This document shows, piece by piece, positions 1,076 to 52,553 of a DNA stretch of 64,000 nucleotides. Position numbers and translations under genes: made by a program. Below the pieces are notes generated by a model that worked only from the letters and a program-made list of their open reading frames with translations, ran no database searches and had not been told where the DNA came from. The stretch lies in assembly GCA_964016885.1 (NCBI GenBank), contig OZ024740.1, positions 218,612,001 through 218,676,000 of the forward strand, read 5' to 3'. Position 1 is the stretch's first letter; each line of letters opens with the position of its first letter. The stretch comes from Eledone cirrhosa. Lineage: Eukaryota.

Positions 1076-1320
1076 AAGTATATTAAGAAACTAAATAGTG
1101 TGCTATATATAATAACGCACATGGTAGTTCCTAACTCAATATATACCTTTGATATATTCCGCTCCATTAATTTGTTGAGCTATTTCAAATGTCGAATAAA
1201 CCTGGCTGCTATTTTTAGTGGTGTAAGTTTGTGAGACACGCTAAGATACCATGTGCGTTATTATATATAGCACACTATTTAGTTACTTAATATACTTAGA
1301 AGTATCTAGGATACTAATTT

Positions 1321-1394
1321 GTCACCCACTGATGAGCAAGAATTGGTTATTCTATTCACAATTAATTAGTATTGCGAAACGTTGTCTGGGTGAT
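1321..1394 (+). ncRNA. Type I hammerhead ribozyme motif
   Basis: gtcaccca-CTGATGA-gcaa..ttgc-GAAA-cgttg-TC-tgggtgat; stem I 8 bp. Confidence 0.85.
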
Positions 1395-1446
1395 TGGTAG
1401 TTACCACAATTCCGGTTTGTATTTATTTTCTTGATTTTTTTCTTAA

Positions 1447-1903
1447 ATTGAGACAGGCAAACCCTATTGTCTATAGTTAGTATTCTTTTCACCTTAGCGA
1501 ATCTGGTTCCTTGCAATTTGAACACATATATCTATATATTGAGACAGGCAAACCCTATTGTCTATAGTTAGTATTCTTTTCACCTTAGCGAATCTGGTCC
1601 CTTGCAATTTGAACACATATATCTATATATTGAGACAGGCAAACCCTATTGTCTATAGTTAGTATTCTTTTCACCTTAGCGAATCTGGTCCCTTGCAATT
1701 TGAACACATATATCTATATATTGAGACAGGCAAACCCTATTGTCTATAGTTAGTATTCTTTTCACCTCAGCGAATCTGGTCCCTTACGATTTGAACTCAT
1801 ATATCTATATATTGAGACAGGCAAACCCTATTGTCTATAGTTAGTATTCTTTTCACCTCAGCGAATCTGGTCCCTTACGATTTGAACTCATATATCTATA
1901 TAT
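1447..1903 (+). repeat. 91-bp tandem repeat, 5 copies
   Basis: Units start at 1447, 1538, 1629, 1720, 1811. Confidence 0.95.
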
Positions 1904-2200
1904 CTGTGTTCGTTTTTCTTTTATATTCAACTATAACATTCGGCTCGGGAATATCTCTTTCTTAGAGCTATTTTATTGTAAGAGACTATTTTGAGTTCAT
2001 AACTCAATATATACCTTTGATATATTTAATATGTATAAAACACAGTTTTAGGAAGCCGTAGCTATGCAAACACCAGGGCTGACGCCCTCTGGTGGTGTCC
2101 AGCAGAAGTAAGGAGGACAACCATCTATACATTTCAGGCTTGACTGGCCTTCTTTAGGACGGTCCTGTTTTCAAGTCCAGCAGTTGCAAGTGGTGGGAGG

Positions 2201-2246
2201 GACCGTCCTGAAGAAGGCCAGTCAAGTCTGAAATGCATCGACGGTT
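2201..2246 (+). ncRNA. Minimal type I hammerhead ribozyme motif
   Basis: gaccgtc-CTGAAGA-aggc cagtcaa gtct-GAAA-tgca-TC-gacggtt; palindromic stem III ATGCAT. Confidence 0.88.
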
Positions 2247-2720
2247 GTCCCCCTTGCTTCTGCTGGACACCACCAGAAGGCGTTAACCCCGGTGTTTGCA
2301 TAGTTATGGCTTCCTAAAACTGTGTTTCTTTAGAAATACGAAATTTCTATACATATTTGTATCTCTCTCTCTCTCTCTCTCTCTATATATATATATATAT
2401 ATATATATATATATATCGTCCCACCCTTGCAAGCAGGGAAAAGCGGACGTATGATGATGATGATATATTTATTTATTTATATATATATATATATATATAT
2501 ATTTAATAGTAATAATAATAAAAAATTTGAAGACTAAAATCCAAAGAGGGCTCGCTAAGGATAAATATATATCAAATATATAAGAACCGTAGAGCAAATA
2601 TTTATTAAAATAACAGATTAAAGTTTAAGCAAAGAATCGCTGCTTTCACCCTTAACGGGATCTTCTGAAACTGTGAAAGCAGCGATTCTTTGCTTAAACT
2701 TTAATCTGTTATTTTAATAA

Positions 2721-3758
2721 ATATATATATATTTATATATATATATATATATATAAATATATATATATATATATATATATATATATATATATATATATAA
2801 ATATATATATATATATATATAAATATATAAATATATATATATATATATATATATTTATATATATATATATATATATATATATATATATATATATATATAT
2901 ATATATATATATATAAATATATATATATATATATATAAATATATATATATATATATATAAATATATATATATATATATATAGAATATATATATATATATA
3001 TATATATATATATATATATATATATATATATATATATATATAAATATATATATATATATATATATATATATATATATAAATATATATATATATATATATA
3101 TAAATATATATAAATATTTATATATATATATATATATATATATAAATATATATATATATATATATATATATAAATATATATATATATATATATATAAATA
3201 TATATATATATATATATATAAATATATATATATATATATATATAAATATATATATATATATATATATATATATATATATATATATATATATATATATATA
3301 TATTTATATATATATATATATATATATATATATATATATATATATATATATATATATATATATATATATATATATATATATATATTTATATATATATATA
3401 TTTATATATATATATATATATATATATATATATATTTATATATATATATATATATATATATATATTTATTTATATATATATATATATATTTATATATATA
3501 TATATATTTATATATATATATATATATATTTATATATATATATATATATTTATATATATATATATATATATTTATATATATATATATATATATATTTATA
3601 TATATATATATATTTATATATATATATATATAAATATATATATATATATATATATATATATATATATATATATATATATATATATATATATATATATATA
3701 TATATATTTATATATATATATATATATTTATATATATATATATATATATATTTATATA
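2721..3758. repeat. ~1-kb (TA)n array with AAA/TTT interruptions
   Basis: Direct observation. Confidence 0.98.
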
Positions 3759-49743: not shown

Positions 49744-49786
49744 ACGGTGCTGATGATAGCTAAGAAGCTTGAAACTAGTACATCGT
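49744..49786 (+). ncRNA. Minimal type I hammerhead ribozyme motif
   Basis: acggtg-CTGATGA-tagc taagaa gctt-GAAA-ctag-TA-catcgt; palindromic ACTAGT. Confidence 0.85.
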
Positions 49787-49962
49787 TCCTGTGTCAGTGT
49801 TGAACAAAAAGGTGACATGGTTGCCTTAACACCGTACGGCATAAATCAGGCTGTCCGTTTGTTTACAAACGGACAAAGCAGGCGTTATAATAAACGTCCG
49901 CTAAACTGATACGTACATATATATATGTGTCCCTGTATGTATATATATATATATATATATAT

Positions 49963-50210
49963 AGGTGTCACGACAAAAAAACACACAGTCCACGCTGTAA
50001 TGTGGCCGTGTAGGCAACACGGTAAAAACCTCCCAGACCCACACTGTAAATGTGGTTGGTGTTAGGAAGGGCATCCAACTGTAGAAAACCTGCCAGACAG
50101 TCCTACGCGAGCAAGACAATCACTCTTGCCTCAAGTGGGAAAACCCCCGTCCAAACCCATGCAAGCGTGGAACACGGACGTTAAACGTTGATGATGATGA
50201 TGATGATGAT
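49963..50210 (+). mobile_element. RTE 3' UTR fragment in (TA)n
   Basis: Matches the 3' UTR at 41860-42220; GAT tail. Confidence 0.88.
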
Positions 50211-51607
50211 ATATATATGCATGCTACTGTACGTCTGTATACATATATGTATGTACGTATACATACATACTTACATTTATTATATATATATATATATATA
50301 TATATATATGTATATACATATATATATGTGAGTGTGTGTATGTTTTTTTTTTTTGTTCTGTTACTCATTTTAGTCATTAGACTTTGGCCATGCTTGGGCA
50401 CCACCTTGATTTAGTTCATCATATGAACCCCAGTACATACTTATTTTAGTAATCCCAATTTGCTGAACGACTAAGTTACAAAACATAAACACACACACCA
50501 CATACACCCCCATGCATACAGTAGGAAACATGTTAAATAATGACGTTGATGATTGATATATTGATAGATATATATATTTATATACACACACACACATACA
50601 TATACTTCCTCCTCCTTCTTCTCACCCATCTATTTTTCTCTCCCACCCTAGTCTACAAACATTTTTTCCAATACCAATCCCCCCCCCGTCCCTTCAATCT
50701 TTCTAATTTATCATTCTTTCTTTTACATACATATATATATATATATATATATATGTATATATATATATACTAATTTCAAAAACACTGCTGTCATAGAATT
50801 ACAATTCCAAAATTAAAAAAATTTTTAATTTTAAAATTTTATAGTTTTATAACTTAACCTAAAGGTGTTGGTTCAACTTTTAACCTGTGTGAAATATTGA
50901 TAATGCATAAATAAAATCTAATGATTCCGACCTTGAATCAATACCTGAAGGTTAAGTTATAAAACTATAAAATTAAAAAATTTTAAATTTTGAGTTTAGG
51001 TCAGCAGAAACATATGTTAATTTGACAATGCCTTGAATCTTCAGTATTTTTAAAATTAGTATATAACAGCTCTCTGTGAACCCCATTGCATTAAGTTTTA
51101 ACCATCTGGTAAAGCAGTTCTAATACTTCATTTATTAATAATATTATTATTATTACTACTATTATATATATATATATATAAAGAGAGAGAGAGAGAGAGA
51201 GATTTGTGTATTGTAATAGTCAACCAAAGATTGAACAACTATAGAGTTACTTAATAACAATCTTTCAAAACAATAGTTAAGGTTACCAGCTGGTTTCATG
51301 CCAGATTCAGCTTTATTTTGATAGATATATTAAAAATATTAATATTTTGAAATATATTTAATGTCTGACTGACATTCTGTCACACCTTTAAGTGTATTCT
51401 ATTTTAAAAGTTGACCTAATACCAATCAGACATGAAATATATTACTTCCGTTAAAAAATCTGAATCCAACATAAAACTAGCTAGTAACCTTGACTAAAAT
51501 TATGTAACATCATTATTAACCTTCAGCATCCTTACGGGGTCGATAAAATAAAGTACCAGTAATGCACTGGGTAATTGCTGGCCTTGTGCCTAAAGTAGAA
51601 ACAATTA

Positions 51608-51729
51608 TTAACCTTCAGCATGCTAAAGGTTATTTTTTTAATGAATTACTTCCCTTGACATTACATTATGTATTAAAGGGAGATCACTCTATTGGTGACA
51701 TAAGGCGCCCAGAGTGCGCTGAAGGTTAA
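51608..51729. mobile_element. Small TTAA-flanked MITE candidate
   Basis: TTAACCTTCAGC ... GCTGAAGGTTAA. Confidence 0.5.
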
Positions 51730-52342
51730 GTAACTTTATATATCTGTGTGTATTTGTCTATATAATGTCATATACATCATGATGGTGATGATCCATGCTG
51801 TAAATGTGGTTGGCATTAGGAAGGGCATCCAGCCATAGAAACCAAGCCAGAAAGAGTTCTGTATGAGCAAGATGTGGTAACCTAATTTGACTTGACTCAC
51901 AACAGGACAACTCATCTAACCCACGCTAGTCTGGGAAATAGACATTAAACAGTGTTGTTGGTGATGATGATGATAATGATGATGATATATAGTTTATCAA
52001 AATAGGTGCATGTTGCCATGGTTATGTATGAATCAGAAAATGCTCATATATTGTTATACGTGTTATATGTGCGTTTTCTGTTGATATATATGTTGGTGTA
52101 TATATATATATATATATATATATATATATATATATAGGTTCTCCGTTGAGAACAAATCTGTTGCTCTACTTGGCTGCTATTTTTTTAGTAGTAATTGTAG
52201 ACAGCAAGTCTTTGATTTTCCCGCTTTTACTTCGGTCCAGTTTACATACGGGTCAATTTTACGACCTTTCAGACCTTTATTAGCTGGCAGGAGGTTGTAT
52301 ATTTTGTCGTTCCTGGGACGTTTAGCCCTAGGAAGGGAAAAT

Positions 52343-52424
52343 GCTTCTCTGATGAGCTTTGGTTTTCCATCATAAATCCATCGGATTTATGAGGTTTTAC
52401 AAAGCGAAACTGATCAGTAAGGGC
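52343..52424 (+). ncRNA. Type I hammerhead motif with extended stem II
   Basis: gcttct-CTGATGA-gctttg..tcataaatcc atc ggatttatga..caaagc-GAAA-ctgatcag-TA-agggc. Confidence 0.82.
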
Positions 52425-52553
52425 CACTAGAAGAGGTAAATATTTATATTATATTTTTTAATGTATTTTGAAAAATTGATTGAATTTTACTTGTTCTGCT
52501 TATCTTAATATATATATATATATATTGATATATTGATATATTGTGATGAAATT

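Follow-up and report, generated by a model that had tools for sequence, protein, structure and literature searches.

Hammerhead ribozyme motifs are real in the DNA analyzed here, a 64,000-nucleotide stretch of the Eledone cirrhosa genome (the window), and many high-copy repeat families carry them close to their 3' ends. That hammerheads sit at the ends of Penelope-like elements and retrozymes in TA repeats is already known as a bulk observation. Our analysis suggests in addition, with a probability of roughly 0.8, that proteins of Penelope type, with reverse transcriptase (RT) and endonuclease, insert all the coding and non-coding hammerhead families into (TA)n, as indicated by an insertion pattern that both kinds of family share.

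Results

Hammerhead motifs in the window and in the genome

A type I descriptor matched the window nine times; 100 dinucleotide shuffles, run both in 500-bp blocks and over the whole window, averaged 0.01 matches and never gave more than one. All nine matches have the CUGANGA, GAAA and UH core elements and three stems, and are open at stem I. Six of them, with plus-strand cores at 1329, 2208, 36791, 49419, 49750 and 52349, are the folds proposed in an earlier sequence-only reading of this DNA, and its U4C core (at 36791) and five palindromic stems III were likewise found as described; the remaining three (25319, 25766 and 46588) are on the minus strand. That reading also listed three degenerate hammerheads, of which the one at 24605 proved to be a truncated true family member. 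The other two were rejected by eye: 25833 lacks the G block after stem II and matches none of the sampled family loci, and 26142 shows no stem I or II pairing and matches one. Relaxing the core added two U4A matches on the minus strand, at 2667 and 60745 (none in 30 shuffles of the window), and the U4A core recurred 11 times in 0.8 Mb of genome against none in five shuffles. A scan for a U3-A8 core gave four matches and is not significant, since shuffles gave zero to four.

The best Rfam hit was HH9 at 49736-49798, whose 18.1 bits fall below the gathering score of 52. Stretches rescanned singly at 1329, 2208, 25319 and 25766 gave no hammerhead match, and over the whole window only miRNA-like hairpins were found among the matches listed (150 of 264). 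We rejected a miRNA reading of these hairpins, which are inverted insertions and TA runs.

Eighty random 10-kb pieces of the genome (0.8 Mb) held 68 strict matches, against zero or one in each of 10 shuffles. The resulting density of 0.85 per 10 kb (bootstrap 0.50-1.26) bears out the earlier figure of about one per 10 kb and corresponds to an estimated 250,000 or so strict motifs in the 3.0-Gb genome. Hammerhead units in this sample formed 22 sequence clusters, and every family that we searched was high-copy. The earlier view that the stems have no sequence in common holds except for the 49750 hammerhead, which aligns without gaps, and with compensatory changes, to those of two other families. 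Within this alignment (13 sequences from the three related families only), nine of 14 stem pairs change on both sides, and 38 covariation cells were observed against 12.6 +/- 3.2 after shuffling, a value reached in none of 500 shuffles. The structure of the 49750-related hammerheads is under selection.

Coding Penelope-like elements and their stubs

Four features of the window belong to three families assigned, with differing confidence, to coding elements:

25212..25660, minus strand: family 25319, pseudo-LTR of a Hydra-clade Penelope-like element
46398..46754, minus strand: family 46588, inverted arm and direct copy, long end; 2,314 candidates
24543..24720, plus strand: family 24605, inverted arm and direct copy, long 3' end; 1,500 candidates
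36562..36665, strand unassigned: second stub of family 24605, without a core

The minus copy of family 25319 has its core at 25319 and a predicted cut at 25270, and its plus partner (25546-25660) is truncated inside stem II. At locus L329 elsewhere in the genome, the order hammerhead-RT-GIY-YIG-hammerhead extends over 3,924 bp, with flanking repeats 92% identical to the 25319 copy of the window; at L391, an open frame of 743 amino acids lies about 230 nucleotides behind a 25319-type hammerhead. These two loci supply the linkage between hammerhead, RT and GIY-YIG that the sequence-only reading had proposed to look for. They show the single frame with RT and C-terminal GIY-YIG, the DKT motif and the CxCx5C, CxxC and CxH motifs of the Hydra clade, and CCHH is missing by eye. 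The 3,924-bp unit exceeds the general length of that clade (<3 kb), which is a typical rather than a strict trait. The genome also has open frames of Neptune type (1,096 and 938 amino acids), and Hydra-type Penelope sequences number 34,823 first-look candidates. A PDB sequence search with the Hydra-type protein gave no match.

In family 46588 (core 46588, predicted cut 46534), three copies carry remnants of a Hydra-type endonuclease upstream. Similar remnants lie 0.8-1.3 kb upstream of one copy (L331) of family 24605, whose window copy has lost the 5' strand of stem I at the inversion point. Families 25319 and 46588 are 3' stubs of Hydra-clade Penelope-like elements as read from sequence, and family 24605 is probably one as well. 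tblastn confirmed that the window itself encodes no Penelope protein, while many are encoded elsewhere in the genome.

Non-coding tandem families

Four of the six families noted originally are ORF-poor tandem retrozymes of 300-510 bp, and one is a 2-kb unit. These families, together with further hammerhead features, are:

1076..2028, plus strand: family 1329, ORF-poor monomer of about 510 bp; 2,202 first-look candidates
2038..2360, plus strand: family 2208, inverted arm (2038-2165) and direct copy; 2,336 candidates
48935..49522, plus strand: family 49419, 3' 590 bp of a unit of about 2.05 kb; 2,651 candidates
49570..50280, plus strand: family 49750, tandem monomer of 455-551 bp; 3,039 candidates
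52137..52508, plus strand: family 52349, tandem monomer of 485 bp, here truncated at its 5' end; 1,983 candidates
36710..36872, plus strand: family 36791, inverted tail piece and direct copy at the short end; 1,798 candidates
25684..25817, minus strand: family 25766, core 25766, predicted cut 25720; 1,092 candidates
37012..37075, minus strand: 3' fragment of family 25766
2500..2735, minus strand: U4A-core stub, inverted and direct, type I core at 2667; second copy at 60745
48700..48926, minus strand: rearranged stub of another abundant family, matched by 58 sampled sequences; longer copies are type I with a U3-A8 core (by eye)

The youngest family, 52349, has a median pairwise identity of 99.5% among its top 30 loci, and tandem offsets of 485 bp were found at 17 of 30 loci. 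Its unit has a folding z of -6.6; the window copy (core 52349, predicted cut after 52419) stops at the short 3' end at TA. The family is also present in contigs of runs X22 and X24, whose kind is unrecorded, and two runs from other organisms, presumed to be RNA, gave no match; these observations have no bearing on expression. Family 49750 (core 49750, predicted cut after 49780) shows offsets of 455-551 bp at seven of 30 loci. The TA tract that follows its hammerhead is part of the element, so that this family carries its own tract, which in the window copy is interrupted by a different repeat at about 49964-50209. Tandem units that each bear a complete type I hammerhead, the mark of non-LTR retrozymes, are thus present in both 52349 and 49750.

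Tandem arrangement was seen less often in family 2208 (core 2208, predicted cut after 2239; offsets of 274-322 bp at 5 of 30 loci) and in family 1329 (1 of 30). The differences between the arms at 2038-2327 were considered as ADAR editing, an explanation that was dropped when transitions were seen by eye to run in both directions. In the 1329 element, an inverted piece (1076-1126) precedes the core at 1329 and a predicted cut after 1386; an internal 91-bp segment is expanded five times (1447-1903), and the long 3' end lies near 2026. The short stem III of this copy, which lacks 8 nucleotides, reflects decay, since stem III in the family's copies is 5 bp long and closes a 5-nucleotide loop. The islands had been described as bounded by or next to TA tracts, with limits that we revise: the 1329 element fills 1076-2028 and abuts the 2208 element, and the nearest (TA)6+ tracts lie 822 nucleotides 5' and 997 nucleotides 3' of its cleavage site.

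Family 49419 (core 49419, predicted cut after 49468) also stops at a short 3' end at TA, and its 2.05-kb unit showed no similarity to Penelope proteins. No protein-sized frame was found in the non-coding units, the longest ORF from a Met codon being 34 amino acids in the 485-bp unit of 52349, 88 in the unit of 49419 and 62 in the 510-bp unit described below. Family 36791 (core 36791, predicted cut after 36829) has U4C in the window and both U4 and C4 among its copies; at least 880 bp of non-coding sequence lies upstream, and none of 25 loci showed tandem offsets. In longer copies of family 25766, the upstream sequence is likewise non-coding for more than 1.2 kb and rich in microsatellites. Both families were read within 1.5-kb flanks, beyond which any ORF would lie.

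BLAST of the islands against 34 GIY-YIG and 31 Hydra loci as possible autonomous partners returned only nested neighbors or the 25319 family, with no partner for 52349, the youngest family, or for 49750, 1329, 2208, 49419, 36791 and 25766.

Insertion pattern

The proposed preference for TA tracts was found on one side only. With arrays collapsed, 28 of 49 units have a (TA)6+ tract in the 150 nucleotides 3' of the cut, where the background is 13.9% (p = 2e-12); the 5' side is not enriched (5 of 44 units against 14.2%). Target-site duplications are unreadable inside TA. All families, whether coding stubs or non-coding, share 5' truncation of variable extent, an inverted partner, a 3' TA tract and two alternative, fixed 3' ends. 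Inverted partners were present at 4-21 of 25-30 loci per family, these junction frequencies and the inverted pairs being drawn from identical best-match loci.

The two ends are distributed between partners by a simple rule. Across six families, 40 inverted pairs joined a short to a long end, one joined two long ends and none joined two short ends. When the query did not require the long end, 30 of 31 pairs from five families were mixed-ended, where 48% would be expected (p = 5e-9). The 17 pairs of family 46588 do not enter this count, since a TA-rich continuation caused 15 of them to be read as short/short; the direct copies of that family, considered apart from the pairs, run on to the long end. 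As the Penelope insertion pattern is seen in genomic copies of the non-coding units too, Penelope enzymes likely move these units.

A candidate S-G-C hammerhead in a 510-bp unit

One further non-coding family was recognized from a list of cores and not by a descriptor:

46986..48010, minus strand: 510-bp non-coding unit, TA-bounded partial tandem and inverted copy; 5,100 candidates

Its predicted hammerhead has the S-G-C block order. Two cores on the minus strand (47507 and 46997) have all three blocks, and a third on the plus strand (47945) has lost the S block. A first S-G-C descriptor that required 3 bp in stem II had found nothing in the window or in the 0.8 Mb. Among 18 aligned sequences, the core and the G block are each intact in 17, and covariation was seen at three of seven pairs in stem I, one of five in stem III and four of six in the stem III extension; the structure was drawn by eye from the same 18 sequences, whose subfamilies are not independent. 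Stem II amounts to a single pair (paired in 17 of 18, with one double change), from which two 4-bp helices extend. An S-G-C hammerhead is thus predicted in the 510-bp family, with support from covariation.

Discussion

Our results point to a set of TA-targeting, ribozyme-bearing Penelope and retrozyme families as diverse as the sequence-only reading had proposed, with coding stubs and non-coding tandem units side by side. Its two options, mobilization in trans or survival as 3' stubs, both appear to apply: 25319, 46588 and 24605 are read as stubs, and 52349, 49750, 1329, 2208 and 49419 as non-coding units. A Penelope enzyme would nick both strands of a palindromic TA tract, and reverse transcription would start from both nicks at two internal RNA sites, producing the short and the long end; the two cDNAs could then join head to head to form an inverted pair. 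Tandem transcripts would be cleaved to monomers by the hammerheads, which probably act in dimeric form if their stem III is palindromic, and the arrays may be templated by RNA circles or multimers. The predicted non-circularly permuted hammerhead of the 510-bp family would have the same role. The two-end rule agrees with what was demonstrated in vitro for a Penelope-like element of a lizard (PMC11167929), namely two sites at which RT starts and cleavage of both strands. An extended version of this reading, toward which we lean only slightly, holds that an animal retroelement family with an active S-G-C hammerhead, in which a junction replaces stem II, is among dozens of protein-free units that hijack a Penelope dimer priming from both TA nicks at two fixed RNA sites, and that one of these units spreads the targeted TA microsatellite.

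The hammerheads could instead be passengers, a view that replaces only the processing step: Penelope would still move the units, but self-cleavage would be weak, protein-dependent or unneeded, and the arrays would come from tandem transcripts or unequal crossover and not from RNA circles. Catalytic mutants had no effect on insertion in vitro and RNA ends at the cut site were absent in the lizard system, where hammerhead cleavage in vitro required protein (PMC11167929, as reported for that system); minimal Penelope hammerheads are described as cleaving poorly (PMC4209133), and the base of stem II is a U-U mismatch in 19 of our 51 sampled units. The U-U variant is, however, among the axolotl retrozymes assayed for cleavage (PMC7229834), and across families the cores are retained as the stems covary, so that we consider this view unlikely while still giving it real weight.

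Scarcely credible, by comparison, is the reading of every island as a decayed 3' stub of a coding Penelope-like element, with no separate non-coding families. It is true of 25319 and 46588 and probably of 24605, and the long non-coding 5' extensions of 36791 and 25766 are compatible with it. Yet head-to-tail arrays of 485-bp and approximately 470-bp units leave no room for an ORF and thereby refute it for 52349 and 49750, and the 2.05-kb unit lacks similarity to Penelope proteins. The units might also be moved by LINEs, for example of RTE type, or be satellites spread into TA tracts by recombination. RT-bearing LINE frames do occur in the window, RTE-type elements are abundant there, and LINEs were left open as mobilizers of retrozymes (PMC7229834). 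We nevertheless regard this as very unlikely, as the non-coding units share the two ends and inverted pairs of the coding Penelope stubs, their 3' ends fall inside the monomer and not in simple-repeat tails, and recombination does not predict the 3' polarity of TA. Insertion by Penelope proteins would account for these features.

Whether LINE or Penelope enzymes move animal retrozymes was left open in 2020 (Cervera and de la Pena, PMC7229834), and Penelope was supported as the mover in 2026 by co-occurrence and repeat similarity (Li, Clavereau and Pollet, bioRxiv 10.64898/2026.07.22.740005). As described in those two accounts, animal non-LTR retrozymes resemble the present units in being non-coding tandem monomers, a few hundred bp in length, with one type I hammerhead each, in their weak or palindromic stem III, U-U stem II base and highly self-paired monomer, and in co-occurring with Penelope-like elements. 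The present set differs in holding many families at once (22 clusters in 0.8 Mb), known from DNA; TA is strongly targeted, the ends follow the short/long rule, one family has its own TA tract and one unit is 2 kb long. Strict motifs number about 250,000 here, where the figures for axolotl and mussel are about 120,000 and 5,000, counts obtained with differing descriptors.

The coding elements agree with the Hydra clade, as characterized by Craig et al. (2021, PMC8557442), in the C-terminal GIY-YIG, DKT, CxCx5C linker, CxxC and CxH without CCHH, and in the canonical hammerhead, (TA)n targets, partial tandems, inverted 5' copies and optional tail. In contrast to that description (generally <3 kb), the unit here measures 3.9 kb, of which 1.4 kb at the 3' side is non-coding, has RWR in place of RWK and tails of about 45-145 nucleotides in place of 30-40, and is very abundant (the 34,823 candidates given above), its clade being assigned by motifs. 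The Poseidon element PAc of the green anole, in the account of Frangieh et al. (2024, PMC11167929), similarly has two internal RT start sites that define a tail and cuts both strands in AT-rich DNA, features that we read from the genomic pattern. PAc is a coding element studied in vitro, whereas ours are genomic copies that include non-coding units, and here the two ends are split between the partners of an inverted pair.

In the literature searched, the S-G-C topology is known only from environmental sequence (PMC10085705). The 510-bp hammerhead shares with type-SGC HRIMA-1 and its variants (Eckert et al., 2023, PMC10085705) the order cleavage site, GAAA, CUGANGA, the covarying stems I and III and the pseudoknotted topology. 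Unlike those metatranscriptomic examples as presented there, it lies in an animal genomic repeat known from its sequence, its stem II is one base pair with two helices from an upstream segment, and its linker between stems I and II exceeds the roughly three nucleotides expected. If it does work, a permuted hammerhead from an animal would extend the class beyond metatranscriptomes and would account for the failure of descriptor searches to detect the ribozymes of some retroelements.

In summary, the non-coding units of E. cirrhosa show the Penelope insertion pattern itself, which goes beyond the earlier co-occurrence and repeat similarity. The short/long end rule makes a specific prediction about the formation of Penelope inversions, and the presence of a young 485-bp family and open Penelope frames in one genome makes an in vitro test of trans-mobilization feasible.

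Hammerhead Motifs in the Window and Across the Genome

The window is AT-rich, comes from a 3.0-Gb genome in 1,796 contigs, and contains 134 (TA)n tracts of six or more units. A type I descriptor (the core; a stem I and a stem II each 3 bp or longer, with U-U plus 2 bp also accepted for stem II; a stem III that forms either a palindrome or a hairpin) matched it nine times, against 0.01 matches per shuffle (100 shuffles). The sequence-only reading had placed type I hammerheads at 1321, 2201, 36788, 49415, 49744 and 52343, and this search recovered their cores and stems there, together with three minus-strand matches that had not been noted. 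It had also listed three degenerate copies: those at 25833 and 26142 lack a hammerhead fold and have 0 and 1 matches, respectively, among the sampled loci, while that at 24605 is a true family member, its 5' stem I strand gone at an inversion (stem I is 6 bp and stem III 4 bp in this family). At 1329, a deletion has cut a full stem III down to the minimal one seen there. None of the window hammerheads reached the gathering score of the Rfam models.

Eighty random 10-kb pieces from 23 large contigs (unplaced contigs and five large contigs were left out) held 68 strict matches, within 29 pieces, against 0-1 in 10 shuffles. The density of 0.85 per 10 kb (bootstrap 0.50-1.26) extrapolates to about 150,000-380,000 strict motifs in the genome. 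The matches form 22 sequence clusters, or 51 units once arrays are collapsed. Published counts, obtained with descriptors that differ from ours, include about 120,000 in axolotl and 5,000 in mussel (PMC7229834, text available in part) and 9,000 minimal forms in Xenopus (PMC4209133, likewise). The sample also contained further retrozyme arrays: nine 466-bp units (L254), five 310-bp units plus four inverted (L298), and three units of family 49750 (L258).

In 28/49 units the predicted cut had a (TA)6 or longer tract no more than 150 nt away on its 3' side, the background in these pieces being 13.9% of random positions; on its 5' side this held for 5/44 (background 14.2%). At 300 nt the counts were 39/49 and 21/44, with a background of about 22%. 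The TA association is real and polarised, as it should be if copying begins at a TA target downstream of the ribozyme.

Remaining features of the window
42962-45886, minus: LINE frames that combine an endonuclease-like region, an RT and a PHD finger
62317-63858, plus: LINE frames of the same make-up (Pfam RVT_1 and PHD on 62317-63855)
3760-4104, 35775-36197, 52509-53072: LINE fragments
18053-19806, minus: broken frames, DNA-transposon transposase-like (Pfam gave a low-complexity match alone)
42434, minus: CCGAGGA core beside TA, resembling the long-stem-II hammerheads of two loci elsewhere (L309, L268)
721-1033: 142-bp tandem repeat built from SINE- or LINE-like pieces
10133-10568: 209-bp tandem repeat, same kind of pieces
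27282-27582: 125-bp tandem repeat, same kind of pieces
40187-40496: 48-bp tandem repeat, same kind of pieces

The LINE frames and fragments are putatively of RTE type, and the broken transposase-like frames resemble the hAT kind. The core at 42434 is probably a decayed copy of another hammerhead family.

Non-coding Families and a Predicted Permuted Hammerhead

Searches with ten islands returned 1,092-5,100 first-look candidates each, which are not copy numbers. Family 52349 (families are named by the window position of their hammerhead core) has a 485-bp monomer, tandem in 17/30 loci, several of them from the same arrays; its median identity is 99.5%, its longest Met ORF 34 aa and its folding z = -6.6. 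Tandem offsets are 508 bp in family 1329, 274-322 bp in family 2208 and 455-551 bp in family 49750. In the last, 52 of 62 left halves continue, across a tract of 7-69 TA units, into a right half, and the tract therefore belongs to the monomer. Microsatellite seeding by other retroelements has already been published, according to sources available in part. Across three families related to 49750, both sides had changed in 9/14 pairs, and these changes extend to the middle of the palindromic stem III. Family 49419 is a 2.05-kb unit without Penelope similarity, and copies of families 36791 and 25766 have at least 0.9 and 1.2 kb of non-coding sequence upstream, respectively.

The cores at 46997, 47507 and 47945 belong to a partial tandem of a 510-bp unit, bounded by TA and accompanied by an inverted copy (46986-48010, minus), the pair having one short and one long 3' end. 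In 18 copies of this unit the blocks run cleavage, GAAA, CUGANGA (S-G-C order). A structure of 33 pairs, drawn by eye from the aligned copies, has 94.6% of cells paired and 14 double-changed pairs, against 7.3 +/- 1.7 in shuffles (0/500) and 1-3 in slid controls; the shuffle control overstates significance, since the structure was drawn from the same sequences and the subfamilies are related. The predicted hammerhead would have a stem II of one pair, extended by two helices. Type SGC has been found outside the genomes of known organisms (Eckert et al., PMC10085705, text available in part). No animal type-SGC or non-circularly permuted retrotransposon hammerhead appeared in the literature searched, subscription journals and supplements excluded, and the available text of PMC13725137 gives no animal case of a permuted one.

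Paired Ends and Probable Penelope Partners

Seven families examined have two alternative 3' ends about 45-145 nt apart, and 4-21 of 25-30 loci per family have an inverted partner on the 5' side. Of 41 inverted pairs in six families, 40 joined a short end to a long one, in either arrangement; in the five families with a query lacking the long end, 30 of 31 pairs were mixed-ended, where 48% would be expected (p = 5e-9). A classification artefact kept family 46588 (17 pairs) out of this count; by eye it shows the same split. At 48813-48926, and at two loci elsewhere (L163, L168), two same-family copies stand tail to tail across one TA tract, opposite to the way in which inverted copies usually face.

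The available parts of two papers report that Penelope-like elements often carry a tail at one end only (PMC8557442), and that two RT start sites and cutting of both strands occur in vitro (PMC11167929). We infer that mixed-ended pairs arise when a TA palindrome is nicked and both nicks prime copying. That ORF-less families follow the end rule is the main evidence that they are likely moved by Penelope enzymes.

The window had been read as free of GIY-YIG or Penelope RT ORFs, and comparison with Penelope proteins gave no match in it. The genome holds 10,596 GIY-YIG candidates and Neptune-type frames that are open over 1,096 and 938 aa (Pfam RVT_1); one Neptune family has, about 385 nt past its stop, a hammerhead that likewise shows the U-U base and a palindromic stem III. 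Linked coding sequence is provided by L329, a 3,924-bp unit running from hammerhead to hammerhead around a broken RT and GIY-YIG, whose flanking repeats are 92% identical to window family 25319. A search with its RT gave 34,823 candidates, and among the best 150 several stand in frames longer than 740 aa. A second locus, L391, has an open frame of this RT type with DKT, CxCx5C, CxxC and CxH motifs. These characterise the Hydra clade, for which (TA)n is the target (PMC8557442, text available in part); Hydra-type matches occur in 11/80 random pieces. Three copies of family 46588 have endonuclease remnants 0.3-1.3 kb upstream, in one case on the inverted arm, and a single copy of family 24605 has them at 0.8-1.3 kb.

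In two loci of a Neptune-type family (L232, L274), the ORF is preceded by a hammerhead that has a palindromic stem III and a U3-A8 core, a core variant described for Schistosoma elements in the available text of PMC4209133. Another locus (L236) contains a pair of 551-aa Neptune-type frames, one on each strand, and hammerheads of family 49419 lie nearby on both strands.

The sequence-only reading is borne out: Penelope stubs and retrozymes form a mixed and densely packed community within TA repeats, which is a known kind of system. The octopus and cephalopod literature searched on hammerheads or Penelope, subscription journals and supplements excluded, contained no account of it, and the word "hammerhead" is absent from the available text of PMC13282606. 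As far as the literature was searched, what goes further than published work is the density, the end rule as it extends to non-coding units, a monomer that carries its own TA tract, and the predicted ribozyme with permuted blocks.
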